From Escherichia phage vB_EcoP_DE5: a stretch of DNA of 64,000 bases. The stretch is taken from the sequence record MW741821.1, one strand, 5' to 3'. The number at the start of each line of letters is the position of its first letter. Position 1 is the stretch's first letter. Shown in pieces: positions 24,602-59,309 of the stretch. Under the pieces are notes generated by a model. It saw nothing but the letters and a program-made list of their open reading frames with translations. It ran no database searches and was not told the DNA's origin. Both the position numbers and the translations under genes were made by a program.

Positions 24602-24856
24602 CTACGAAGTTAAGATGATTTCAGCCTTAATAAACTTCTCACCAACAACCATATCACCAGAGATGACACGTAGTTCTCCAGTGCCTAGGTTAACAGCTCC
24701 AGCAGGTTGACAACCCCTGCTTTTAGCTGTCATCATATAAACCTTTTGATTTTGGCACTCTTGGAGAGTGAACACATCTGACATATTTAGATCTCTGACG
24801 CGGAGGATTTTTTCCTCTTTGTCTTTAACTTTAATGTTAATAATGCTCATATGCAC
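24602..24856 (-). CDS. small protein, paralog family member
   Basis: 84 aa; tandem array, N-terminal K-rich segment followed by L..L..GDVF-like motif. Confidence 0.5.
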   Translation of the reverse strand: MHMSIINIKVKDKEEKILRVRDLNMSDVFTLQECQNQKVYMMTAKSRGCQPAGAVNLGTGELRVISGDMVVGEKFIKAEIILTS

Positions 24857-25101
24857 TACTCCTGAACCACTGACATACGAATCATTTCTACCTGATCATC
24901 AAGACCTTTAACAGATAACATACCTGTGGAAAGGTTTACCACAGGAACCCAACCACTGGCTATACGGATGTTACCAGAAGCATTTTCAACCCTCATGTAA
25001 TACTGAGGAGAGGCACTTCCGTTCTGAACCACGAAAGGGTTTCCGGGAATGATTGTTTCCAATCGTACCGTATTATCCTTTTTCTTTGGGATGATTTTCA
25101 T
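24856..25101 (-). CDS. small protein, paralog family member
   Basis: 81 aa; MKIIPKKKDNTVRLETIIPGNPF. Confidence 0.5.
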   Translation of the reverse strand: MKIIPKKKDNTVRLETIIPGNPFVVQNGSASPQYYMRVENASGNIRIASGWVPVVNLSTGMLSVKGLDDQVEMIRMSVVQE

Positions 25102-25349
25102 TGCGTATTATCCACCAAAAGTTCTGCTGATACAGGAACAACTCGGCACCAGATAGAAGGTGCTGTTACGTTACCATCGGATAGACGAAGAGTAATTGTT
25201 CGATCAGAGTTAACGGTTACATTAGGACTTTCAGACACAGACCCTTTAACATAGAGAGTAGCACTCTCAGGGAATTTAAACACTGCTCCGCTGGGGAGGG
25301 AGTTGAGATCAATCGTGGTCACTTCTTCTTTCTTGTGGGTAATCTTCAT
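25098..25349 (-). CDS. small protein, paralog family member
   Basis: 83 aa; MKITHKKEEVTTIDLNSLPSGAVF. Confidence 0.5.
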   Translation of the reverse strand: MKITHKKEEVTTIDLNSLPSGAVFKFPESATLYVKGSVSESPNVTVNSDRTITLRLSDGNVTAPSIWCRVVPVSAELLVDNTQ

Positions 25350-25600
25350 TTAGAATCCTTAATAACGTTAGCTTCAACCTTAACAGGAATAACAGAGATG
25401 CCCTCAACGGGGCCACTTAAGTGTCCATCTTCCAGTCTGACACACACGACTCGATCTCGTGCAACTTCTACCCAATTAGTAGATGCCGCAGTACAGACCA
25501 TATGAATTGGACCGTTCTCTTCCAGCCGGAAGGTATCGCCCTTCTTCAGAGTGTGGAGTTTCACAGTCTTGATAGTTTTGTTCAATTCGTTAACTTTCAT
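25346..25600 (-). CDS. small protein, paralog family member
   Basis: 84 aa; MKVNELNKTIKTVKLHTLKKGDTF. Confidence 0.5.
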   Translation of the reverse strand: MKVNELNKTIKTVKLHTLKKGDTFRLEENGPIHMVCTAASTNWVEVARDRVVCVRLEDGHLSGPVEGISVIPVKVEANVIKDSK

Positions 25601-25920: not shown

Positions 25921-26415
25921 ACATCCTCCAATTAATTGTTAAAACTATCAGGGGAGAACACTAGCTCTGGGCCACGCTGTAGATATTGGCCTACCTTCCA
26001 CAGCTAATCAGCTAATATACTCCCCTAATAGTTTATGAATAGGGGGAGGGGACGAATCCTCCCTTATCCTATTAGTTAATATTGCATGTAAGATCTAACA
26101 ATCGGTTGCCTTTGTAGGAATAAGCGTAAAGCCAATCCAGCACTAAACTCCCGCCCCCTTAGTGGGCTGGGTTATTAAAGGGTAACGCCCTTATGGGCTA
26201 GTTACATGAATGTTAGTTTGATAGGAGATCTGAAGTCCTATCTCAAAGGACTCTCGTAAGAATCCTTCACGATATTACTTATTCATCTCTCGTCGGCTAT
26301 CTCTCCAAGCCAACCAAGTGTAGGTTTTCAGTTCTTCAAAGTCTTCTGGAGAGAATAGATACTCTTTGAAGGTGTTCCCAAACCACTCTAAAAATTCTTC
26401 AGTCATAAGATTCTC

Positions 26416-26589
26416 TTAACAAGATTGGTCACACGGCTGATCACCACATGTTTTACAGATCACTGGTGAGTAACTACAGGCAGGATAAACAGACACCCCA
26501 TCAAACGTCTCACATCCACAATCAGGACATGTACCGTTGGATTCCATGTCATCATCGTCATCTACTTCACCGCCACCAAAACAACTCAT
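26416..26589 (-). CDS. small acidic Cys-rich protein
   Basis: 57 aa hand-translated (MSCFGGGEVDDDDDMESNGTCPDCGC...), AAGGAG SD; below track cutoff. Confidence 0.4.
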   Translation of the reverse strand: MSCFGGGEVDDDDDMESNGTCPDCGCETFDGVSVYPACSYSPVICKTCGDQPCDQSC

Positions 26590-26598
26590 ACAGGCTCC

Positions 26599-26820
26599 TT
26601 AGTAAACTAAACCTGTAGCCTTTGCATCAGGCTGAGGGACTACTTTTGCACTAGGGCGATAGCCATCCACTGAGCCGTTCCAAAGATTGACACAGGTGAT
26701 ATATCCATCGTCTATGATGTCTGTTTTAATCCAGAAGTGTTTATCATGACCAAAAATACTTCCGTTTGGCAGCGTGGACAATTCAACAGTTTTAAGTGAC
26801 TGCTTAGAGTCTAGTTTCAT
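26599..26820 (-). CDS. small protein, paralog family member
   Basis: 73 aa; MKLDSKQSLKTVELSTLPNGSIF. Confidence 0.5.
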   Translation of the reverse strand: MKLDSKQSLKTVELSTLPNGSIFGHDKHFWIKTDIIDDGYITCVNLWNGSVDGYRPSAKVVPQPDAKATGLVY

Positions 26821-26829
26821 ATAAGTTCC

Positions 26830-27027
26830 TTAATATACCAAACCATGTAAAAGAAACATCCTCTTTGTAAGCTCTGCTTTAGCTCTGTAATAAGCCTTAG
26901 AACCTAACAGGCGGCTCTTAACAAAGAACTTAATGTCATTGCTAACATCTTGTATTAAACGCTCCTGTACAGTTTCTGAGGAGTTATTAATCGAATCAAT
27001 TAACACCTTTGTAGATGTGTAATTCAT
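26830..27027 (-). CDS. hypothetical protein
   Basis: Track ORF 26830-27219 trimmed to internal Met with AAGGAG SD (65 aa). Confidence 0.4.
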   Translation of the reverse strand: MNYTSTKVLIDSINNSSETVQERLIQDVSNDIKFFVKSRLLGSKAYYRAKAELTKRMFLLHGLVY

Positions 27028-27028
27028 A

Positions 27029-27328
27029 TCACCACTCCTTACCGGTTGTAATCGTAGAGCCACCACACCACAATGCTGTATCAATAACAACATTATCCGG
27101 TGTAGACTTCTCTTCGTTGATAGAAGGGTTAGCATTAGAACAGGTTGCTCCGTTCCATCGCATATCAATTTCACCAGAAGGAATCTTCTCACCCTTATGC
27201 CAGCGAGAAACACAAACACCTTCCACTGCTACTGCACACCATCCATCAGGACGGCTCTGTACGCAGCCTGTAAGGGCTATGCAGACAAGGAAGATACAGA
27301 TTAAGGATATTACACCACCCCAACTCAT
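27029..27328 (-). CDS. predicted lipoprotein
   Basis: 99 aa; signal peptide with lipobox ALTGC; AGGAGGT SD. Confidence 0.6.
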   Translation of the reverse strand: MSWGGVISLICIFLVCIALTGCVQSRPDGWCAVAVEGVCVSRWHKGEKIPSGEIDMRWNGATCSNANPSINEEKSTPDNVVIDTALWCGGSTITTGKEW

Positions 27329-27348
27329 AATTACCTCCTATTAGATTT

Positions 27349-27440
27349 GGTGGACTATCTGGAATCGAACCAGAAGCTCACTAAGAAAGTAATTCCCACT
27401 GTTATAAAAGCACTTGCCTCAACAGGGATACACTAACTCT
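27349..27440 (-). other. tRNA-like element (T-arm present; full cloverleaf not resolved)
   Basis: Minus-strand UCUGG-UUCGAUU-CCAGA T-arm followed by UAGUCCA-CCA, but no matching 5' acceptor strand found by hand. Confidence 0.3.
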
Positions 27441-27468
27441 GGTGCCGCACCCATACTAGCCCTAAATG

Positions 27469-27544
27469 TGGTGCGCCCTACAGGACTCGAACCTGTAACC
27501 AATAGCTTAGAAGGCTACTGCTCTATCCATTGAGCTAAGAGCGC
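27469..27544 (-). tRNA. tRNA-Arg (anticodon TCT)
   Basis: Hand-folded: acceptor GCGCTCT/AGGGCGC, D-arm GCTC-AATGGATA-GAGC, anticodon stem GTAGC/GCTAT with loop CTTCTAA, T-arm ACAGG-TTCGAGT-CCTGT, discriminator A, encoded CCA. Confidence 0.85.
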
Positions 27545-27719
27545 AGAATTATTTAGATCATATCTCGCTTGGTGATATGACCACATGTTTTACATCGAAG
27601 TATATAACGAGTACCTGTGTCTTCTATTTGACCAATCTCATTATATATGTGTAAACGAACTTCTTTTATTGTCTCCCAATCATGCAGATGGAATAGACGT
27701 TTAAACCACTTGAACATAA

Positions 27720-27953
27720 TTACACCACCTCAACGAGAGATGTTTTCCATGCAAACAGAGGTCCATTATCGTTAAGATAAACAGCTCCTCCCGTCTCGAA
27801 CGGAGTCCCATAAGGAAGTGCCCAAGCATACCCACGAATTTCTGGCTTATGGGTAAACCCATATACCTCGCCGTTGCTATCAGTTGCTAAATATCTTATA
27901 GAGCTGTCCACTTTAACAACTTCGCCAAAATATTTAACCTCTTTTCCTTTCAT
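27720..27953 (-). CDS. hypothetical protein
   Basis: Track ORF trimmed to MKGKEVKYF Met with GAGG SD. Confidence 0.45.
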   Translation of the reverse strand: MKGKEVKYFGEVVKVDSSIRYLATDSNGEVYGFTHKPEIRGYAWALPYGTPFETGGAVYLNDNGPLFAWKTSLVEVV

Positions 27954-27960
27954 ATTAACC

Positions 27961-28212
27961 TCAAGCACAAGCAGGGAGTGTGATGATTTTATGCTTACCA
28001 TCAAATTCTCCAAATAAACCTAAGAATGTGGGACTGTAAGTTCCAGTACAAACAAACTCATCAAACAATGCGTTATAACTAGGCTTGATCTTCCAAGCCC
28101 ATACATAACCCATCTTGTCAATTGCAATGTAACGAGTGTTCAGAGGAACAGTCATCATTATACCATCAACTTCGATCACTTTAGTGATTGGTGCAGCTTG
28201 GAAGTTTTTCAT
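27961..28212 (-). CDS. hypothetical protein
   Basis: 83 aa ORF. Confidence 0.45.
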   Translation of the reverse strand: MKNFQAAPITKVIEVDGIMMTVPLNTRYIAIDKMGYVWAWKIKPSYNALFDEFVCTGTYSPTFLGLFGEFDGKHKIITLPACA

Positions 28213-28385
28213 ACTTTACCTTTGATAAAAATGTCATTACCACAGACACAGCATGAACGAACAACAGTAGCGCCACGCTGAACAATACGAACCTCTTCCT
28301 TAACCAGACTAATACGAGCACCGCAGCAAGGAGAGTTGACATAAGAGTAACCAGCTTGCGTATGTTTGATTATTTGCTTAGACAT
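28209..28385 (-). CDS. small zinc-ribbon protein
   Basis: 58 aa hand-translated (…SPCCGAR…SCCVCGN…); ATGA overlap with downstream gene. Confidence 0.4.
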   Translation of the reverse strand: MSKQIIKHTQAGYSYVNSPCCGARISLVKEEVRIVQRGATVVRSCCVCGNDIFIKGKV

Positions 28386-28731
28386 TTGATTCTAGATCTC
28401 TTAGTTGTTCAGCCAATTGTTCGCATTCATTAACGCAGAACTCTTCTGTTCTTGGTATCCCGTTAGGGTTGAACCGTGTCTTATCACCTGCATGGGCACA
28501 ATCAAATCCGATTGTATCTAAACCACCCATCTCTTCAAGGGTGTCTTGCCATGTGACACCACCATGAACACTTACATAACAAACCTCTTCCTTTCCGTTA
28601 TATCCGGTGAAGTTTTTATGTTTTAAGCTGTCTGGTAGCTCTACATATCCACAAAAATGGGAGTCGTTCATGTGCATAATCACAGCACGAAGACCTGATT
28701 TAGTGACCCAATCTTTAACCATGCGTCTCAT
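28378..28731 (-). CDS. hypothetical protein
   Basis: Track ORF trimmed to MRRMVKDW Met with GGTG SD (117 aa). Confidence 0.45.
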   Translation of the reverse strand: MRRMVKDWVTKSGLRAVIMHMNDSHFCGYVELPDSLKHKNFTGYNGKEEVCYVSVHGGVTWQDTLEEMGGLDTIGFDCAHAGDKTRFNPNGIPRTEEFCVNECEQLAEQLRDLESNV

Positions 28732-28769
28732 ATAAGCACCTCTTGTTAGTTTAAGTAAGAGTTGTCCCT

Positions 28770-28803
28770 TAATTAAAACAACAAAGGCCACCCGAAGGCA
28801 GCC
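28770..28803 (-). terminator. Rho-independent terminator (possibly bidirectional)
   Basis: Hairpin GGCUGCC-UUCG-GGUGGCC with U-rich tracts on both sides. Confidence 0.55.
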
Positions 28804-29311
28804 TTTTATTTATTAACTGTTATACGTCCAATTACCTTGCTTGTTACGGATGGCTGACATTGCATGAATCCAAAAGCCTTCCAGTTTCAGAGCACCATTA
28901 GCTACTGCATCCATACGTTCAGGGCGGTTCATACGTTTGGTTGATACTTTCATACCTATCTCTCTTTGTTAGTGGAGGCATTATTGCCAGTTGATATAAG
29001 GGATAGCCCTAGTCAGTAGACTAACCCTGACCGCGTACTCATTGCCGACCTTCTCTGCCTAAGAGTTCAGGTTCTAGAGCTATCTCTTATTCCAACTGGT
29101 GAAGACTCCCTACCCCTAGGAAGTCTCCTGAATCCCAAACCAATACGTACCCCTACATATCGGAAAGTCTTTCGAAAATTAACAGGTTTTAGTCTAACAC
29201 CGGATGTTCGAGCAAGCTCTCCCTAGCGGTGTGGCATATGCCTGAATTAATAAGTTAATGAGGAACACCCTCACATAGCCCTCTGATAAACACAAGGGCT
29301 ATAAGTCGGTG

Positions 29312-29530
29312 TTACTTTTGGGATAAACACAGATCAGGTCGTGGCATAACAGTGGTTGATAGACCGAAGACTTCAACAGAACCACTGCTCAAGTTAGCAG
29401 CCTTACACAAACCATCAGGGGTTTTATCTTCTAGCATCAGCCAGAAACGTTTATCATAAGAGAAAACATCACCACCTTTAACGTCCTCTGCATTTGCATA
29501 TTTAGGATAATCAACTACTTTAATTTCCAT
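29312..29530 (-). CDS. small protein, paralog family member
   Basis: 72 aa; ...AEDVKGGDVFSYDKRFW. Confidence 0.5.
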   Translation of the reverse strand: MEIKVVDYPKYANAEDVKGGDVFSYDKRFWLMLEDKTPDGLCKAANLSSGSVEVFGLSTTVMPRPDLCLSQK

Positions 29531-29540
29531 CTAATTGCCC

Positions 29541-29759
29541 TTATTGATATATAGAAAGGTGGATAAGTTTATTAACATGAGCGAAGTTAGGAAGGATTTG
29601 CATCTCATTGTTGAAGATATTAAAACAACGAACCCCGCCCTCTACAGCATAAGCAGATTTCTGAAACAGACTGCCTCCCCACACAAATACATCATGTGTT
29701 TCAAGAGATCGTAACTGAACAGCCTCGTCAACAACCTTCTTTTCAATGTTCATATTCAC
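29541..29759 (-). CDS. small protein, paralog family member
   Basis: 72 aa; ...LRSLETHDVF. Confidence 0.5.
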   Translation of the reverse strand: MNMNIEKKVVDEAVQLRSLETHDVFVWGGSLFQKSAYAVEGGVRCFNIFNNEMQILPNFAHVNKLIHLSIYQ

Positions 29760-30007
29760 TTCCGATTGGTAATTACTGCATCATGGATAACTGAAACAGG
29801 TAAGTTTGAATCTAGCTTCATTACTTGATTGGTGCTTAAACTGAGCACTACACAACCATTCCGAAGATCAGTCTCTGACACATGTGGTGTATATAACTGA
29901 ACGATCATGTAATAATCAATACATGTTGCCTTAACTTGGAATACATCACCAAGTTTCAAATCACCCACACACAATTCTTTAGCTTTCATCTCAAGATCAA
30001 TCTTCAT
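29756..30007 (-). CDS. small protein, paralog family member
   Basis: 83 aa; ...VGDLKLGDVFQV. Confidence 0.5.
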   Translation of the reverse strand: MKIDLEMKAKELCVGDLKLGDVFQVKATCIDYYMIVQLYTPHVSETDLRNGCVVLSLSTNQVMKLDSNLPVSVIHDAVITNRK

Positions 30008-30233
30008 CTTTAGCCTCTATGTTGGTTATGTGAAGATCACTACGTACTTGGCAGACTTCATCCCGTTTAAAAGGCATGAGCTTTCCAGTTACCACATCAA
30101 CACAGTTGACATAATTGTCTGCGTACAATGTGTCGGTTCTGATGTAAAGGGATTCTTTACGCTCAAACAGAACCCCCGGCTTCATGTTATTTAAGCGAAG
30201 CATTGTACGATCGGATTTAATATTAACTTTCAT
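29997..30233 (-). CDS. small protein, paralog family member
   Basis: 78 aa; ...LNNMKPGVLFER. Confidence 0.5.
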   Translation of the reverse strand: MKVNIKSDRTMLRLNNMKPGVLFERKESLYIRTDTLYADNYVNCVDVVTGKLMPFKRDEVCQVRSDLHITNIEAKDED

Positions 30234-30235
30234 CT

Positions 30236-30493
30236 TTAATCCACCTTATTGGTAAGTCGAGCATTATCAACTACCTGAACAACAGTATCTTTTCTCAACA
30301 TTGTTATTCTATCCGAAGTGAGATCTACTACTACTCTTTCGTCAGGCTTCCAACTAGCTGAATAAACGGTTGAGGAATCTAGCTTTACTGTAAGATATAT
30401 TTTATTTTTAGGTGGAACAGTTTCAAAAACACTCCCCACCTTCAGGTCTTTCAGTTGCTTGACTACAGGGGCTGTATTAATATCATGCTTCAT
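30236..30493 (-). CDS. small protein, paralog family member
   Basis: Trimmed to MKHDINT Met with AGGAG SD; ...LKDLKVGSVFETV. Confidence 0.5.
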   Translation of the reverse strand: MKHDINTAPVVKQLKDLKVGSVFETVPPKNKIYLTVKLDSSTVYSASWKPDERVVVDLTSDRITMLRKDTVVQVVDNARLTNKVD

Positions 30494-30779
30494 TGTTAAT
30501 CTCCTGCTGTTTAGCAATAGCCACTCGCAAGTCTTCATTAGCACGAGCAAGGCGTAACACTTCGTGGTTGAGGTTCTGAAGACGCTTGTTTCTGTCCTCT
30601 ACTTGCATAATAAGATCATTAAGTGTTACTTTAACTTTCTCATTATACATCTCATCCACTCGAACTAGGGATTTATACATTCTCTCCCAGCTTGCTGCTT
30701 TGTTTCTGAGAATAATAAATCCTAGAACGCTGATAGTTAAACAGCTTACAAAAAGGAATTTATATACTTCTAAAGTCAT
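30483..30779 (-). CDS. membrane-anchored coiled-coil protein
   Basis: 98 aa; N-terminal hydrophobic helix then heptad-like charged region. Confidence 0.45.
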   Translation of the reverse strand: MTLEVYKFLFVSCLTISVLGFIILRNKAASWERMYKSLVRVDEMYNEKVKVTLNDLIMQVEDRNKRLQNLNHEVLRLARANEDLRVAIAKQQEINNEA

Positions 30780-47576: not shown

Positions 47577-50354
47577 ATGATCGTTTATAATAACCAAGCA
47601 CCTGATGCAGTGAATAACGTTGGGCAGTTTGGTGCTACTGAAGGCTCTATCGGAGCTTACAAGCAAGCGGCAGAATATGCAGCTGACTCTAAATATTGGG
47701 CACTGTTAGCAGAATCTAAGTTTGGTACAATTGATGATTTAATTGCTGAAGTAGAACGTCTGTATCAACAGGGTGTTCTGATGAAGCAAGACATTGAAGA
47801 TCTTAAGCAGGACTTTAAAGATCAAGATGCTCGTCTGATGAGCTTGATTGCTCAGACTAATGCGGCAGTATCTGATGCAAATAACGCAGTCGCCCTGATT
47901 AACCAAAAACTCATTGAAGTCCAGAAGCAGCTTGATGTTCTGTTAGGAATGTCTGTTGATGTAACAACCCTCCCTCCGGGAACTCCGGCTACTGGTTCTT
48001 TTAATCCTAACACTGGTGTAATCTCTTTAGGTATTCCAGAAGGTGATCCCGGAAAAGATGGTTCTGTTAAGGATTTGGATACAGCACCTACTGGTGTTCC
48101 AGAGCTAGGTGATTTAGGTTTCTATGTTGACAAAGATGACAACACCGTCCACAAAACTACTCTAGATAACATTGCTAACTTAATCCCATCTGTTCGTTCT
48201 GTATCTATTAACGGAGGTCCAGCTCTTGATGGAGAGGTTGCTCTAACACTTAACAAAGAGACGGTAGGTTTAGGAAATGTTCTGAACGTTGCTCAGTACA
48301 GTCGTCAAGAGATTAATGACAAATTTGACAAAACTACCAAGACATACCAATCAAAAGCAGAAGCTGATGCTGATGCTCAGTATCGTCAAGTAGGTGAGAA
48401 AGTTTTAGTTTGGGAAGCTACTAAGTATGAATTCTATACTGTTGCTGCTAACAAGACATTAACTCCTGTTAAAACTGAAGGTAGAATCCTTACTGTTAAC
48501 TCTCGTTCTCCAGACTCAAGTGGTAACATTGATATCACGATTCCAACAGGAAACCCGTCTCTGTATCTTGGTGAGATGGTGATGTTCCCTTATGACCCAG
48601 CTAAGAATATCTCATATCCGGGGGTTCTCCCTGCTGATGGTCGTCTGGTATCAAAAGAGTCTGCTCTAGATTTAGGTCCATCACTTGTTAGTGGTCAGCT
48701 TCCTGTGGTCTCTGAAACAGAGTGGCAGGCTGGTGCTCGTCAGTATTTCTCTTGGGGTAAGTTAGCAGATGGAGTCACTGATGCAGATTCTACTAACTTT
48801 ATAAGTATCCGACTCCCTGACTGGACTGGTGGTGAAGCTATCAGATCTCCTGATTCAGATAAGGATGCTAATTACAAGGGTCGTGTTCAATCTCAGATTC
48901 CTTACATTGTAACCGTAAACGGAAAAGCTCCTGATGATGCTAATGGTAACGTAGTTCTCACAGCTGCTAATGTTGGTGCAGCAGCGTCCGGAGCAAATTC
49001 AGATATCACCTCACTCAGTGGACTAACTACTCCCTTATCTGTCACTCAGGGTGGTACAGGTGTTACTGATATAGGAGGTTTGCGTAGAGCGGCATTGGTT
49101 CAGGGTGTAGAATGTAATGACCAAACAGGACCAGATAGCTACAACAGTTTCCACTCCCCTAATACTCAATATGCATGGAAGATAACCAACTCTGGTGTGG
49201 CTCAAACAATTAAAGTTTCCGATGGGTCTGCTGTTCCTATACCTATAGGTTCTGGGGGTACAGGGGCTACCTCTGCTTACGATGCTCGTATTTCTTTAGG
49301 TTTGGGCAGATTCCGGGAAGAGGGTGTGGAAACTAAAACCTACTCCCCTGATTTTGGAACGTACATATACATCAATGATACATCTTGGGGTTGCTATAAC
49401 ACGACGAGAGGTACAGTACCTTTAGGAACTGTTCAAGGGGGTACTGGAGCAATAACAGAAGCTGGGGCTCGTGTTAATCTGAAAGTAGATAAACTTGTTC
49501 AGAGTTCAACTGACACTAAACTTTTAGATGGTTCAGGAGATCACACATTCTTTATAGCTGGGGATGATTGGGGGTATTTCAATAATTCAGATTCTTCCAG
49601 AATTGCCCTACCGGTAATAAGTGGTGGTACAGGAGGGAAGACTCCAGAAGAAGGCTGTGAAAAGTTAGCGGCAATGCATTATCAGCATAGTCAATCAACA
49701 TACTATGGTAGTGATGCTTTGCCGACCGGTATTGGGTTCTACAGTCAAGACACTTCACCATTCCCTGGCGGTAACGGAGGCCCTTACTCATATGCAGAAA
49801 TAATGACTATTGCTGAAGGTGGTCGTGGAGGTAACTGGTCTCAAATAGGTTTCTCTACTATTACGAACCAAGCCCCTCGTTATAGACAAAGGACTAGTGA
49901 CCCTTCTTTAATCACAAACTGGCGTGACTTCTTAATAAGAGATTTGAACACTACCGTAGATGTTAATGGTTTTGTTAAGATTGCATCACCTATAGTCAAA
50001 CTAAAATCTGATGGTTCTTCTGAAGTTAATGACCAAGCCCAAGGAGTAACAACCGAAAGGCTAGATGTTGGTGTTTACAAGATATCTGGGACTTTAGGGT
50101 TTAACTCGGATGCATCTTGGGGTGGTATCGAAGGTGGTTTTTCTATTCCACAAAACTCCAATGGTTTACCTCTTCTTTGGGTTGACTTTGAAGTTGATGA
50201 AGAAGGTGATATTACTCTGAAAACTTACCATCGGACTCATGAGGGAGTTCCTTCTTTTGCTAGTAATGTAATAGAGGGTGTGGCAGATGGGGAACCTATC
50301 GATATCCCTGTTGGAAGATGGATTGATCTTCGTGTTGAAATGCCTTCTAAATGA
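47577..50354 (+). CDS. tail fibre/tail protein with repeated GGTG motifs
   Basis: 925 aa; repeated QGGTGV/SGGTGA/QGGTGA/SGGTGG segments typical of fibre shafts. Confidence 0.55.
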   Translation: MIVYNNQAPDAVNNVGQFGATEGSIGAYKQAAEYAADSKYWALLAESKFGTIDDLIAEVERLYQQGVLMKQDIEDLKQDFKDQDARLMSLIAQTNAAVSDANNAVALINQKLIEVQKQLDVLLGMSVDVTTLPPGTPATGSFNPNTGVISLGIPEGDPGKDGSVKDLDTAPTGVPELGDLGFYVDKDDNTVHKTTLDNIANLIPSVRSVSINGGPALDGEVALTLNKETVGLGNVLNVAQYSRQEINDKFDKTTKTYQSKAEADADAQYRQVGEKVLVWEATKYEFYTVAANKTLTPVKTEGRILTVNSRSPDSSGNIDITIPTGNPSLYLGEMVMFPYDPAKNISYPGVLPADGRLVSKESALDLGPSLVSGQLPVVSETEWQAGARQYFSWGKLADGVTDADSTNFISIRLPDWTGGEAIRSPDSDKDANYKGRVQSQIPYIVTVNGKAPDDANGNVVLTAANVGAAASGANSDITSLSGLTTPLSVTQGGTGVTDIGGLRRAALVQGVECNDQTGPDSYNSFHSPNTQYAWKITNSGVAQTIKVSDGSAVPIPIGSGGTGATSAYDARISLGLGRFREEGVETKTYSPDFGTYIYINDTSWGCYNTTRGTVPLGTVQGGTGAITEAGARVNLKVDKLVQSSTDTKLLDGSGDHTFFIAGDDWGYFNNSDSSRIALPVISGGTGGKTPEEGCEKLAAMHYQHSQSTYYGSDALPTGIGFYSQDTSPFPGGNGGPYSYAEIMTIAEGGRGGNWSQIGFSTITNQAPRYRQRTSDPSLITNWRDFLIRDLNTTVDVNGFVKIASPIVKLKSDGSSEVNDQAQGVTTERLDVGVYKISGTLGFNSDASWGGIEGGFSIPQNSNGLPLLWVDFEVDEEGDITLKTYHRTHEGVPSFASNVIEGVADGEPIDIPVGRWIDLRVEMPSK

Positions 50355-50394
50355 AACAAGAATGCTCCCTTCGGGGAGCTTTAAGGAGAAATAA

Positions 50395-52587
50395 ATGTCT
50401 AGAGAATTAATGCCCAAATCTGGCATAATGATGCCTCACGTAGTTGTGACCAGAGATGCGGCTGTTGTTGGTGTTTCTACAGTAGATGGACAGGCCGGGG
50501 CTATTGACCTCACTGGAAAGTATTTACAGAAAACCGATGCGGCTGCTACATATCAGACTAAAACAGAGGGAGCATCTAAAGACTACGTATTAGATTCAAT
50601 TCAACCTCTTATGTCTAGTGCTCTGTTCCGAGAAGATCCTTGGGTTGTGAACGACACACCTTTCCGCTCTACTGGAGCTAACGGTGTAGAGTCAGTGGAT
50701 ATGATGAAGGTCACTCCTGATAACTCAATTAAGATTGGTAGTTATGCTTCTTCCGTTCAAGGTGTAGAGATTCACTCTGCTGGTCGTCTTCAGGTTGTTG
50801 ACCAGAATGATTCTGGAGTAGAAACTAAGTATCCAGTTTATTCTAAACGCTACCGCCCAGAGATTGAAGATTTACCTTTTGCTGCGATTGGTTCTTATGT
50901 TAAAGACTCCAAAGGTCGTACTGTTGGGGTTACTCGTACAGGGATTAACTCTGATATCAAACAGCTCACGCAGAAGGTGACTTTCACTCAACCAGTTACT
51001 GTTCCTGATGCAGTTGGAGACTATGATGCAGTTACTTTGAGACAGCTTCGTAATAGTGGTGGTGGTTCTGGTGGTCCTGGTGGTCCTACAATGAGTGGCA
51101 TTTCTAACTTTGGGATTGGGGATTTTCATTTACGTGATAGTCGTGCTTTCATCCCAGCTTTTGAGGTGGTGTCTGATGGTCAACTCCTTGAGCGTGCTGC
51201 CTATCCTGACTTATGGGCGTACGCTCAACTTCTTACACCCATCTCTGATTCAGAGTGGCTTGCTAATGTAGAAAATAGGGGTAAATATTCTACAGGTGAT
51301 GGTTCTACGACCTTCCGTGTCCCAGACCGAAATGGTGTTCAGAGTGGGTCTGTTCCGGGACTGTTTGGTCGCGGTGACGGTGGGGATAGTGCTCTAAATG
51401 GGATAGTGCGTAGCAACGCCGCGCCGAACATTACTGGTGCTCTGGGTGCATCCATGACTACCCTGTACGATGCTCCAGATACAACAGGTACGGGTGCAAT
51501 AGTTCCAGCCCCTATAGTTATAACCGAATATAAATTAGATAGTACGGGTACTGCAAGACTAAACTACAGGCTCAACCTTAATATTGATGCCAGCCTATCC
51601 AATGCGGCATACGGTCGTGACGGCACCGCAGAGGTCCGACCCAATGCTTTCACCGGGGTCTGGACTATTCGTGCTCATGGTGGATTTGTTGCTGCTAATA
51701 CTTCTTGGTCTGTTATCAATAGTGACACCGCCCGGCCTTCGAATGGAACGAAAGTTTCCAGTGGGTCGGTTGTCTCTGAGTATAGAATCGGTTCAGAGGT
51801 GGAAGCTTCTACTACCCTCAAAACTGATGCCTACATCAACGGAGCTTACTATGGAATCATTGACGTCTACAATAAAACTAAAGGAGTTACCAAGCAGTTA
51901 GCTTTCGACGATTCTGGTACACTGAATTCTGATAGGTATGTTGCTAGATTTGGCACTTTGATGTCTTGGAGTGAAACAGGAGCTAGGAAAGGAACATTCT
52001 CTATGGATAACCAAGGGATAGGGTCTAACTACTCATTCAACTCTATACTAAGTGCATCACAAGCATCCAATGGAGGGTACAAGACTACAACTCACGTTGG
52101 TATGATTCACAATGACGCCGGAACTTTTGCCGACTCTTGCTGGCACGTTGCAGGGGATGAAAATAACCAATATGGTTGTCGTCTAACCCTTCGACCAAAC
52201 AGGAATGAGATTTTCTATTATACTTGGCAACCCAGCTCTACTGGAACATACACTCTTGCTCTGAATCCTGTGTCAGATGAAAGATTAAAACATGATATCC
52301 AAGATGTATCTCCTGAGAAAGCTATCAAGGCTATCAAAGGGTTGGATTTCAAATCATTTGTGTATAACAACGATGAACAAGGAAGAACTCGTCGTGGTAT
52401 TATCGCACAGCAAGCAGAAAAGGTAGAACCTCTTTATGTTAAGACTCGTAGGTTCCATGACAACGATGGTGTAGAGCAAGAACAGAAAGAGCTAGACTCA
52501 GCTCCTATGCTCCTTGATACTATGCAGGTTGTTCAAGACCTTCTGAAACGTATTGAAGTTCTGGAATCGAAGTTAGCAGAGAAGTAA
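50395..52587 (+). CDS. tail fibre/spike with C-terminal intramolecular chaperone (peptidase S74-like) domain
   Basis: 730 aa; C-terminus DERLKHDIQDV...KAIKGLDFKSF...RRGIIAQQAEKVEPLYV. Confidence 0.65.
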   Translation: MSRELMPKSGIMMPHVVVTRDAAVVGVSTVDGQAGAIDLTGKYLQKTDAAATYQTKTEGASKDYVLDSIQPLMSSALFREDPWVVNDTPFRSTGANGVESVDMMKVTPDNSIKIGSYASSVQGVEIHSAGRLQVVDQNDSGVETKYPVYSKRYRPEIEDLPFAAIGSYVKDSKGRTVGVTRTGINSDIKQLTQKVTFTQPVTVPDAVGDYDAVTLRQLRNSGGGSGGPGGPTMSGISNFGIGDFHLRDSRAFIPAFEVVSDGQLLERAAYPDLWAYAQLLTPISDSEWLANVENRGKYSTGDGSTTFRVPDRNGVQSGSVPGLFGRGDGGDSALNGIVRSNAAPNITGALGASMTTLYDAPDTTGTGAIVPAPIVITEYKLDSTGTARLNYRLNLNIDASLSNAAYGRDGTAEVRPNAFTGVWTIRAHGGFVAANTSWSVINSDTARPSNGTKVSSGSVVSEYRIGSEVEASTTLKTDAYINGAYYGIIDVYNKTKGVTKQLAFDDSGTLNSDRYVARFGTLMSWSETGARKGTFSMDNQGIGSNYSFNSILSASQASNGGYKTTTHVGMIHNDAGTFADSCWHVAGDENNQYGCRLTLRPNRNEIFYYTWQPSSTGTYTLALNPVSDERLKHDIQDVSPEKAIKAIKGLDFKSFVYNNDEQGRTRRGIIAQQAEKVEPLYVKTRRFHDNDGVEQEQKELDSAPMLLDTMQVVQDLLKRIEVLESKLAEK

Positions 52588-57304: not shown

Positions 57305-58273
57305 ATGGGTGCAGGTGGTTTTCGTAAGAACACTGGTCGCAACAACACCACACTCCCGTACAACGTTGGGTTTCTCAATAATGTACAGGACACAGAAACA
57401 TATAACGTAGCAGTGTATGATGAATTACAAAAAGTTAGCACAGCTACTAACCAAATGTTCCAAGCTATAGATGAAATTCACGAAGAGATTGATGTTCGTA
57501 TTAAAGCTCTTAATGCAATGAATCTTCAATTTGATGAGCTTGAGAATAGAATTACTACAGAGATAGAAACAGCTATTGCAGATATCCAAACCCAGATGGG
57601 GAACCTGTCCACTGAGGACATTTGGGATAATTCTGTTCAACCCCCTGTGAAGCTAGAAAGCACTGTATCTGGTTTTAAGACCAGCATCGAAGGTAACACA
57701 ACTAAAATTCAGACAGTAGAAGGTATTGTTAACGATCAAGGTCAAGAGATTGCTCTTGTTCAGACAGAACTGCAAAATATCAACGGAAGCCTTTCTCAGT
57801 ATATGAAACTCTCTGAGTATGAAGCTACGTGGGGTGTTAACTCTACAGTCAACGGAAGATATGCTGGGGTCAAGTTAACTAACAACGGAACAAACAGTCA
57901 ATTCCAAGTAACAGCTAACAAATTTATTGTTGGTGATGGCAGCTCTGGGAATACCCCCTTCGTATTTGAGGGTGGGCGAGCTAGGATGGAATTCGCTGAC
58001 ATAAAGAACGTCAACATCACAACTGCTCAGATTGCCAACGCTAGGATCCAATGGGCACAGATTGATAACGTATCTATCTCCAATGCTCAGATTCAGAACT
58101 TATCAGCGGATAAAATCACTGCTGGTTCTATGTGGGGTTCTAACTGGAGACTTACTGTTGGTGGTGATTTTGTTATGGGTGGTACAGGTGGTTCTCAGTT
58201 GTGGATGAATGGTAATAGAATAGATTTTTATGATGGGAGTGGAACTCTTCGCATAAGAATAGGGAGTTGGTAA
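57305..58273 (+). CDS. tail fibre-like protein
   Basis: Track ORF trimmed to MGAGGF Met with GGAGGAA SD; ITTAQIANARIQWAQIDNVSISNAQIQNLSADKITAG repeats. Confidence 0.5.
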   Translation: MGAGGFRKNTGRNNTTLPYNVGFLNNVQDTETYNVAVYDELQKVSTATNQMFQAIDEIHEEIDVRIKALNAMNLQFDELENRITTEIETAIADIQTQMGNLSTEDIWDNSVQPPVKLESTVSGFKTSIEGNTTKIQTVEGIVNDQGQEIALVQTELQNINGSLSQYMKLSEYEATWGVNSTVNGRYAGVKLTNNGTNSQFQVTANKFIVGDGSSGNTPFVFEGGRARMEFADIKNVNITTAQIANARIQWAQIDNVSISNAQIQNLSADKITAGSMWGSNWRLTVGGDFVMGGTGGSQLWMNGNRIDFYDGSGTLRIRIGSW

Positions 58274-58274
58274 C

Positions 58275-59309
58275 ATGGCATATGGAATATGGACACGCCC
58301 GGTTGGTCCGGGTCCAGCGGCACCTGCTGATATTTACATCGATAGTGGTAGCACATTCCCTCAACTCAGAAATAGAGTCAGTGGGAATTTCTCTTTTAGT
58401 GGAAATACCTGTGACTTGCCTATAAGTGGTTGGGATGGTAGTGGTCAGATAGTTGTAGTTCCAACAGGGTCTGTTGTTTGGGAGAGATACATACCTCCTA
58501 ACGTAACGTCTGATGTGTATTGGATAACGGATATATCTGTTATTAATAACTCAACCTTCAGAGTTACTATGGACTATAATGTAAACGGTTGGGTATTTGA
58601 TATGGCTTTTAATGTGTATCAAATATGGCCTAGAGCTAACAGGAATTATGGAATCACATTCTCCAACTCTGCTGACTATTTCTCAATATCTGATTCTGGG
58701 GTTGTTGGTCAATGTATTTGGGCTTGGGAGGGTGACATAAATGGTTCTCTTCAAATACCAGATATTGGTGGTTTTGATATGAGCCGAGCAACTGTCTACG
58801 CGAATTGGAGTAACGGTGGAGCAGGGCTGCTATACAATCCATCCAATAGGGTTGTTTATGTGTACCAGAACAGGTCTCATGATAATGGTAACACAAACCA
58901 AACAGGATACATTGGTGGTGTTAGAATTGCCGTCTTCTGTGATGGTTCTGGAGTACCAACCCACAATGGTGGTTTAAATATCTTCTCTCCAAATGGGTCT
59001 CAGTGTGTATTTTCTACATATAGAACCCCTTTTAGTGTTGAGGGATTTATGCCTATGAGTGGCGGTAACACATCTCTGGCCTATCCAATGATACCACTAT
59101 CTTACGGAGCAGGAGCAATAAGAGGCAAGGCTAGTGGTTGGTATTTTCAACACACAAGATCTCACATGATGAATGGCTCTTCTTTCGGTACAGGTTTCGG
59201 AAGGATGATTTACTCTTGGAGTAGTCAATATGATTTAGGAGGGGGTGGTGCCCTCGGGTTAAGTATTCCAATATTAGATGCTAGAAAGATATTCAGGAGT
59301 ATACAATAA
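58275..59309 (+). CDS. virion structural protein
   Basis: 344 aa in structural operon. Confidence 0.45.
   Translation: MAYGIWTRPVGPGPAAPADIYIDSGSTFPQLRNRVSGNFSFSGNTCDLPISGWDGSGQIVVVPTGSVVWERYIPPNVTSDVYWITDISVINNSTFRVTMDYNVNGWVFDMAFNVYQIWPRANRNYGITFSNSADYFSISDSGVVGQCIWAWEGDINGSLQIPDIGGFDMSRATVYANWSNGGAGLLYNPSNRVVYVYQNRSHDNGNTNQTGYIGGVRIAVFCDGSGVPTHNGGLNIFSPNGSQCVFSTYRTPFSVEGFMPMSGGNTSLAYPMIPLSYGAGAIRGKASGWYFQHTRSHMMNGSSFGTGFGRMIYSWSSQYDLGGGGALGLSIPILDARKIFRSIQ

Follow-up and report, generated by a model that had tools for sequence, protein, structure and literature searches.

An Rtp45-family lipoprotein of a Kuravirus, Escherichia phage vB_EcoP_DE5, as a probable superinfection-exclusion factor directed at LptD

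In this work we analysed a 64,000-nucleotide stretch of DNA from Escherichia phage vB_EcoP_DE5 (sequence record MW741821.1; the whole stretch is called the window below), in which the minus strand carries a prolipoprotein gene at positions 27029..27328, stop codon included. Our results suggest that this gene probably encodes a superinfection-exclusion lipoprotein of the Rtp45 family directed at LptD(E), and that the phage most likely excluded is the Kuravirus itself. The original prediction had put the product forward as a candidate superinfection-exclusion lipoprotein, and this is now supported by homology to Rtp45 (PF24052, E 9e-14, 41% identity) and by a fold match.

The coding sequence appeared in the list of open reading frames (ORFs) as 99 codons followed by TGA, read from 27328 down to 27029. 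Its product matched the Pfam family PF24052 ('Phage lipoprotein family') at 7.4e-35 and 119.2 bits (cut-off 27), with residues 3-99 covering positions 1-80 of the 80-position model, on which Rtp45 itself scored 128 bits. It also matched PHROG 4281 (function 'unknown') at 1.6e-33 and, among PDB sequences, 9RPS chain D, which is Rtp45, at an E-value of 8.9e-14. The identity between the lipoprotein and Rtp45 was 41%, which exceeds the 35% between Rtp45 and the superinfection-exclusion protein of phage Oekolampad (PMC12685063); the LptD dependence of Oekolampad was shown experimentally. The family is narrow, with 15 clusters at 50% identity among 1.84 billion representatives. By tblastn the lipoprotein was found in 383 phage records at a limit of 1e-3, and on this evidence, together with the PF24052 match, we take the ORF to be a real gene and not a chance reading frame.

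The published structure 9RPS is that of a complex of Shigella LptDE and LptM with Rtp45 (chain D), the lipoprotein by which siphophage Rtp prevents superinfection; the role of Rtp45 in exclusion is as described and cited in the same paper (PMC12685063). Rtp45 lies at the periplasmic interface of the outer membrane, beside LptD strands 5-8 and between LptE and LptM, where its residues 30-35 form a beta-sheet with LptD 318-323 and Cys30 and Cys38 form a disulfide (PMC12685063). Its long hairpin runs up the LptD lumen, and extracellular loop 4 of LptD is moved by up to 20 Å, a displacement after which the phage receptor-binding protein can no longer bind LptD; the LptDE state bound by Rtp45 is the closed one, with the lumen occupied (PMC12685063). 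The receptor-binding protein of Oekolampad is known on open LptDE, as chain C of 9RPT.

Conserved features of Rtp45 were recognised in the lipoprotein. In a 68-sequence family alignment C22, W30, C31, C39, G52, D55, R57, G60 and G90 were invariant, and the RPDGWCA core and the terminal (K/R)EW were nearly so. The conserved core, R26-P-D-G-W-C31...G37-x-C39, maps to 27212..27253 on the minus strand. Its Cys31 and Cys39 are aligned with Cys30 and Cys38, the disulfide pair of Rtp45, and are predicted to form the same bond, and residues 31-36 are the counterpart of strand 30-35, through which Rtp45 pairs with LptD 318-323. The C-terminal K-E-W (27032..27040, minus strand) is common to Rtp45 (..SKEWN) and the Oekolampad protein (..SREW; supplement of PMC12685063), E98 and W99 being nearly invariant across the family. 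The AlphaFold2 (AF2) model, with a pLDDT of 81.6, contained strands at 31-35, 38-44 and 47-50 and a long hairpin, 52-64/87-98; when it was used for a fold search, the only credible PDB match was Rtp45 (9rps_D; probability 1.0, target-normalised TM 0.78, E 1.4e-3). The predicted fold should be read with caution, since AlphaFold3 mispredicts Rtp45 itself, complex predictions with LptDE included (PMC12685063).

The 3 kb around the ORF were 99.8% identical to Escherichia phage SkaterBoy_Bas90 (PQ850626) and about 92% to 99% identical to the remaining relatives, and blastn of the whole window against Bas90 gave aligned pieces of 85-98% identity. Judged by these alignments, the window comes from a Kuravirus, a phiEco32/SU10-like podovirus with SkaterBoy_Bas90 as its nearest relative. 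WFI101126, phiEco32 and SU10 are classed in Kuravirus, Gordonclarkvirinae, and in the BASEL paper Bas90 is assigned to this genus of prolate C3 podoviruses. Most of the ~77.5-kb genome is covered by the window, late tail genes included. The lipoprotein is 100% identical to Bas90_0100, annotated as 'hypothetical', and its orthologue in phiEco32, phi32_106, is annotated as 'putative phage lipoprotein'.

The start of the gene is well defined. The Shine-Dalgarno sequence AGGAGGT (27333..27339, minus strand) is separated from the ATG by 4 nt (AGGAGGT-AATT-ATG), and a longer N-terminus is ruled out by a TAG that stands in frame four codons before the ATG. The original prediction was thus right about the length, the coordinates and the strong ribosome-binding site of the 99-aa ORF, to which the minus strand has to be added, and the predicted signal peptide ends, as described, in the lipobox ALTGC. 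Residues 1-21 (MSWGGVISLICIFLVCIALTG; 27266..27328, minus strand) form a predicted leader with a very hydrophobic h-region (mean Kyte-Doolittle 3.3) and a modelled helix at residues 3-20. The lipobox, L19-T20-G21-C22 (27263..27274, minus strand), is canonical, with Cys22 as the predicted acylated N-terminus of the mature protein, and the leader MSWGGVISLICIFLVCIALTG is followed directly by CVQS. In the family alignment Cys22 was conserved in 68 of 68 sequences and Gly21 in 67. The +2 sorting rule is established for E. coli; here the +2 residue is Val23, not Asp, which predicts sorting to the outer membrane, and no Asp was present at +2 in the family, as the six commonest residues at this position cover all 68 sequences. 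A six-frame scan of the 64 kb identified this ORF as the only one combining a hydrophobic leader with a lipobox.

A small lipobox protein of a lytic phage, with a leader devoid of positive charge, could also be read as an o-spanin (an Rz1-like lysis lipoprotein), or the ORF as a chance one without an exported product; we consider either reading extremely unlikely. The genome has, in its middle region, an Rz-like i-spanin gene of its own that is overlapped by a lipobox ORF (MRKLNQFFIMSALVMSMSAC...), while no i-spanin gene adjoins the lipoprotein gene, whose product is not Pro-rich and is a strongly conserved member of PF24052. In addition, phiEco32, NJ01, ECBP2 and KBNP1711 stand in both the i-spanin and the o-spanin families of a spanin census, as two-component systems. 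The o-spanin identity was ruled out on the basis of this census and of the Rz/Rz1 pair located elsewhere (32.5-33.0 kb in Bas90). As a separate matter of annotation, Bas90_0031 (PQ850626 32526-32885; 57 aa, MPLPTNL...) is apparently the Rz1 o-spanin called too short: its frame extends upstream to MRKLNQFFIMSALVMSMSAC..., with a lipobox, overlapping the Rz-like gene.

Superinfection-exclusion genes of siphoviruses are thought to be encoded with the genes of their cognate receptor-binding proteins, downstream of gpJ (BASEL work), and in Rtp itself rtp45 and rtp44 abut each other beside the J-like rtp43. Because of this pairing, the window was searched with Rtp44, the LptD-binding receptor-binding protein of Rtp. 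The tblastn search returned, at 4e-15, a 344-aa ORF at 58275..59309 on the plus strand, the orthologue of SU10 gp19, phi32_21 and Bas90_0015 (the gp19 homologue below). Both proteins belonged to Pfam DUF6453 (1.2e-24 for the gp19 homologue, 1.4e-113 for Rtp44) and to PHROG 1265, 'membrane protein / moron' (3.7e-106 and 8.8e-99, respectively), and a profile built from podovirus sequences alone found Rtp44 at 3e-17. The gp19 homologue also matched the sequence of 9rpt_C at 1.7e-9, and its AF2 model (pLDDT 84, pTM 0.84) had this chain as its only significant fold match (E 2.3e-12, TM 0.80). We propose, from this homology, that the gp19 homologue may be the partner whose binding the lipoprotein blocks.

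The gp19 homologue sits directly after the tail-needle gene, the orthologue of SU10 gp18 (57305..58273, plus strand; Pfam PF09327 Phage_Tail_Tip, 1.1e-26). The C-terminal 270 residues of the needle align to the last 230 of Rtp43 (blastp, Rtp43 residues 905-1116, E 5e-6), so by alignment this part is a homologue of the tip region of the J-like central fibre in Rtp, and we propose the needle C-terminus as a putative docking site for the receptor-binding protein. As far as homology can tell, all three parts of the siphovirus LptD module, the fibre tip, the receptor-binding protein and the exclusion lipoprotein, are present in the window.

The distribution of the two genes was judged from identity-band counts and spot checks, not genome by genome. 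Lipoproteins of 60-100% identity were found in 83 records, the matches listed from this band all being Gordonclarkvirinae, and a few more had 58-60%. The gp19 homologue occurred at at least 60% identity in 91 records, plus a 44% type, and E. coli Gordonclarkvirinae records recognised by the nozzle protein numbered ~98. A distant SU10-like metagenomic contig, ERZ1305919 NODE_71 (100.6 kb), carried a 40%-identical lipoprotein in its early region and Phage_Tail_Tip, DUF6453 and SLT genes in its tail module, which is the same split arrangement. A six-frame profile search of Salmonella phage 7-11 found neither family, though this phage shares 41 ORFs with phiEco32, and neither PF24052 nor DUF6453 was found in FhuA-dependent T1. 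These results are consistent with the lipoprotein and gp19 genes being kept or lost together, in what amounts to few independent comparisons.

The podovirus forms of the lipoprotein have an additional feature, an insertion bracketed by Cys63 and Cys88 (27065..27142, minus strand) and located at the tip of the long hairpin of beta-strands 52-64 and 87-98. The two cysteines co-occurred in 18 of 18 sequences, never singly, and the pair is specific to the podovirus (SU10-like) forms. Counting both cysteines, the segment has 10-35 residues (26 here), versus 2-7 in the same columns of siphovirus forms without the pair. All three genomic contexts checked outside the window were those of early-region genes, and one of these contigs also has an SU10-type portal. 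In the model Cys63 and Cys88 face each other at the far end of the hairpin, and pLDDT is low in the intervening loop. A second disulfide, Cys63-Cys88, is therefore likely to staple the enlarged hairpin tip, the cross-strand pairing of 63 with 88 being taken from strand register only.

On this basis we put forward a broader proposal, in which our confidence is just short of even: LptD(E) would be the terminal receptor of Kuravirus and of Gordonclarkvirinae, gp19 would sit on the needle tip and the lipoprotein would be the cognate exclusion factor. The three-part module would have been transplanted between siphoviruses and the podovirus needle, with the exclusion gene moved to the early region and its hairpin enlarged and stapled by a disulfide. 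The BASEL paper reports that Kuravirus phages depend on O-antigen, and according to this paper and a 2023 review their cell-surface receptors beyond O-antigen have not been identified. Nothing relevant was found when the literature was searched for a link between LptD and Kuravirus, SU10 or phiEco32, or for DUF6453.

Several observations weigh against the lipoprotein being an LptD-directed exclusion factor of the Kuravirus itself. The n-region of the leader has no Lys or Arg. This is unusual in a lipoprotein, and the leader would be missed by rule-based patterns for lipoproteins that require such a residue. Lys and Arg were likewise absent from 11 of 11 leaders of the MSWGGV type in the 68-sequence alignment, this one included, while other members have 1-3 such residues. 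The hairpin tip, with its 26-residue segment, is the part that acts on LptD loop 4 in Rtp45, so details of the action may differ. The exclusion gene and the gp19 homologue are 31 kb apart, one in the early block and the other in the late tail module, and not adjacent as in Rtp. In some Klebsiella/Enterobacter siphophages (e.g. NC_049840, 39319-39537 and 29203-29841) the PF24052 homologue likewise lies ~10 kb from the DUF6453 homologue; a split is thus found outside podoviruses too, and it may be that adjacency is not a truly defining trait. In SU10, imaging showed many particles delivering DNA into one cell, which is compatible with an exclusion that needs time to establish and gives no support for it. 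The alleles of the two genes, tried as evidence of their pairing, did not co-vary: the lipoprotein is 100% and the gp19 homologue 62% identical to its Bas90 counterpart. This lack of co-variation fits an exclusion protein that would recognise the conserved periplasmic side of the receptor and not the receptor-binding protein.

The main argument against gp19 as a receptor-binding protein of the virion comes from the cryo-EM paper on SU10, where the entry for ORF19 reads 'In virion: no; Detected by MS: no'. The mass spectrometry (MS) of SU10 was done on gel bands, proteins of similar size, gp18 (322 aa), gp21 (350 aa) and gp22 (322 aa), belong to the virion, and the resolution of the needle was no better than 10-15 Å; a single-copy 37-kDa tip protein, substoichiometric or labile, could have been missed. 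Alternatively, the lipoprotein may serve to exclude competitors only, blocking LptD-dependent small siphoviruses of the same hosts, with Kuravirus not using LptD and gp19 having a role outside the virion. The absence of ORF19 from the SU10 virion list and from the MS data would be explained in this way, as would the position of the exclusion gene in the early region, uncoupled from the tail genes, and the alleles that do not co-vary; homologues of LptD-type receptor-binding and exclusion proteins are, moreover, present in several hundred coliphage and Klebsiella phage records. We nevertheless regard exclusion of competitors alone as unlikely, because gp19 is kept at at least 60% identity in 91 of ~98 E. 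coli Gordonclarkvirinae records, always between the needle and the ejection proteins, because the needle has a J-tip-like domain, which in siphoviruses is the attachment site of such receptor-binding proteins, and because both genes occur together in the distant SU10-like lineage and both are missing from 7-11.

The similarity of the gp19 homologue to its siphovirus counterparts is also limited, at ~25% identity to Rtp44 and 15% to the Oekolampad receptor-binding protein in a structural alignment, and its specificity may have drifted. This low identity, along with the lineage-specific, Cys-stapled insertion at the functional hairpin tip, could mean that the podovirus pair works by the same mechanism on another target, having diverged to an outer-membrane protein other than LptD. 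We give this only a small chance. The lipoprotein core is nearer to Rtp45 (41%) than Rtp45 is to the Oekolampad exclusion protein (35%), small siphoviruses using other receptors have unrelated loci for receptor-binding proteins (BASEL work), T1, which uses FhuA, has neither family, and no member of PF24052 or DUF6453 was tied to another receptor in the literature examined.

For a lipoprotein directed at LptD(E), we envisage the following course of events. The gene would be transcribed with the early leftward block, as judged from the position of phi32_106 past the last mapped middle promoter, the one upstream of gene 68. The mapped middle and late promoters of phiEco32 precede genes 6, 13, 26, 40, 58 and 68, the leftward cluster of small genes being of the early class, and gene 106 lies in this leftward cluster of small, diverse genes; early expression of the lipoprotein, as for T5 llp, is therefore likely. 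By the usual sequence rules the precursor would be a Sec substrate, Cys22 would be acylated, signal peptidase II would remove the leader, and the Val at +2 would direct the protein through Lol to the inner leaflet of the outer membrane. The mature protein of 78 residues would be stapled by the Cys31-Cys39 disulfide and probably also by Cys63-Cys88. By homology to the Rtp45-LptDEM complex it would dock on the periplasmic rim of the LptD barrel and send its long beta-hairpin up the lumen; extracellular loop 4 would then be displaced, and a receptor-binding protein could not engage LptD from outside. The phage most likely excluded would be the Kuravirus itself, because the same genome has a homologue of an LptD-binding receptor-binding protein right after a J-tip-like needle. 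LptD would act as the terminal receptor, reached after binding to O-antigen. In this way the lipoprotein may protect infected cells and keep progeny from being wasted on debris, and LptD-dependent siphoviruses would be excluded too.

LptDE is essential, and Rtp45 binds its closed state and fills the lumen. Binding to LptDE could thus be an end in itself, in that a host-takeover effector would throttle the export of LPS and O-antigen, altering the primary receptor layer or weakening the outer membrane before lysis, and exclusion would be a side effect. The place of the gene among early host-takeover genes and the dependence of these phages on O-antigen agree with such a role, which we nonetheless hold to be very unlikely: Rtp45 was co-overexpressed with LptDE to good levels with no toxicity reported (PMC12685063), no such role was assigned to any family member in the literature examined, and the gene co-occurs with the homologue of the receptor-binding protein in the genomes examined.

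Some further observations concern the tail genes. The gp19 allele of the window is 62% identical to those of Bas90 and SU10, themselves 98% identical, and is least similar at the C-terminus. A blastn gap against Bas90 at 58782-59302 falls within gp19, with flanking DNA of 94-96% identity, and the neighbouring needle gene is identical or nearly so, aside from an artefactual N-terminal extension in the ORF call. The divergence of gp19 suggests that the gene of this putative receptor-binding protein is a recombination hot spot. The long-tail-fibre region, at ~49030-52333, also aligned to Bas90 in patches, with 85% identity over 1 kb and no alignment in the adjoining stretches to the left and right, a pattern that fits an exchange, among close relatives, of the distal fibre that binds O-antigen. 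The PF24052 gene itself is often missed in annotation, and in some records of the siphophages with the split arrangement it lies under features named 'PDDEXK-like family protein' or 'DNA methyltransferase'.

The neighbours of the lipoprotein ORF are small early ORFs and one tRNA. The 'tRNA locus' of the original prediction does adjoin the ORF and proved to be a single tRNA-Arg(TCT), directly upstream on the same strand at 27469..27544 (ARAGORN; Rfam RF00005, 72.4 bits), with 140 nt between the two. On the other side, the ATG of the next small ORF begins one base past the lipoprotein stop, and we read the context of the gene, from this arrangement, as probably polycistronic. A scan of 26000-29500 gave no convincing sigma-70 promoter or terminator directly upstream of the gene, and promoter-like sites in this interval (2) were fewer than in shuffled sequences (mean 7.9). 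The gene is therefore probably read within a long early transcript.

At least nine small ORFs of ~72-104 aa stand in tandem on the minus strand on both sides of this region (24602-25600, 26599-26820 and 29312-30550). They mostly start with MK(I/V/L), share the loose pattern ..L..G..F......V..L..G....., are all annotated as hypothetical and resemble a paralogous early-gene family. The 140-nt spacer between the tRNA-Arg and the lipoprotein start (27329-27468, minus strand) resembles a tRNA-derived element, with a T-arm, a 3' acceptor strand and an encoded CCA (CTGGTTCGATTCCAGATAGTCCACCA), a possible 5' acceptor strand GGGCTAG and a minimum free energy of -39 kcal/mol; neither ARAGORN, with introns allowed, nor Rfam called it as a tRNA. 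It was found, unannotated, in 29 phage records, from E. coli/Shigella phages of Kuravirus genome size, at 94-100% nucleotide identity, a conservation far above that of the adjoining lipoprotein gene. In phiEco32 and WFI101126 the spacer is missing and the lipoprotein gene starts ~20 nt past the tRNA.

The lipoprotein is a further member of a known family; what may be new is the so far unreported implication of a complete, though rearranged, LptD module and of LptD as the Kuravirus terminal receptor. Kuraviruses (SU10, ES17, phiEco32 and BASEL Bas86-94) are frequently isolated on clinical E. coli and are a therapeutic phage group, and their molecular biology is described as poorly studied in the BASEL paper. 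If the proposal is true, it makes a directly testable prediction of a terminal receptor, on an essential and highly constrained protein, and is relevant to the trade-offs of resistance and to how phage cocktails are designed, since Kuraviruses and LptD-dependent siphoviruses would be expected to show cross-exclusion. A so far unexplained ORF of the SU10 tail module would gain a role, and a second, naturally enlarged LptDE-binding mini-protein would become available as a probe or inhibitor scaffold. For annotation, PHROG 1265, labelled 'membrane protein / moron', contains a family of receptor-binding proteins with an experimentally solved structure, and PHROG 4281, labelled 'unknown', matches a lipoprotein whose Pfam family includes a solved exclusion factor.

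Among known phage lipoproteins, Rz1-type o-spanins are likewise small and of the outer membrane, but their function in lysis needs a partner i-spanin gene, and such a pair is located elsewhere in this type of phage. Cor of T1, phi80 and N15 is also a small phage lipoprotein linked to exclusion at the receptor step. It differs in its receptor, being linked to FhuA, and membership of the Cor family was ruled out, as blastp against T1 Cor gave nothing at E up to 100; the family profile scored T1 Cor at 12.8 bits, which is the level of the signal peptide only. T5 Llp is a small lytic-phage lipoprotein that is early and of the outer membrane, as is predicted here, and it binds the periplasmic face of the terminal receptor FhuA and changes its extracellular loops. 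Membership of the Llp family was ruled out too, with no Llp chain among PDB sequence matches to E 10 or among fold matches; no sequence similarity was detected, and PF24052 was the only credible Pfam match of the lipoprotein. The target of Llp is a TonB-dependent transporter, on which it acts by long-range allostery, whereas Rtp45 displaces a loop physically (PMC12685063). The likeness to Llp and Cor is functional only.

Rtp45 is the closest of the known systems, with some differences. Rtp is a small siphovirus and the phage studied here is a C3 podovirus; the rtp45 gene abuts the gene of the receptor-binding protein downstream of gpJ, whereas here the gene is in the early region, 31 kb from its putative partner. 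The lipoprotein, a predicted exclusion factor, has the 26-residue Cys63-Cys88 segment with its extra Cys pair and a leader without Lys or Arg. With Rtp45 and the Oekolampad exclusion protein (bas18_0026) it has in common the Pfam family, the lipobox Cys, the Cys-Cys pair, the RPDGWC core and the C-terminal KEW, and with the Rtp45 system a DUF6453 homologue of the receptor-binding protein and a J-tip-like fibre domain in the same genome, together with a predicted fold that matches Rtp45 at a TM of 0.78.

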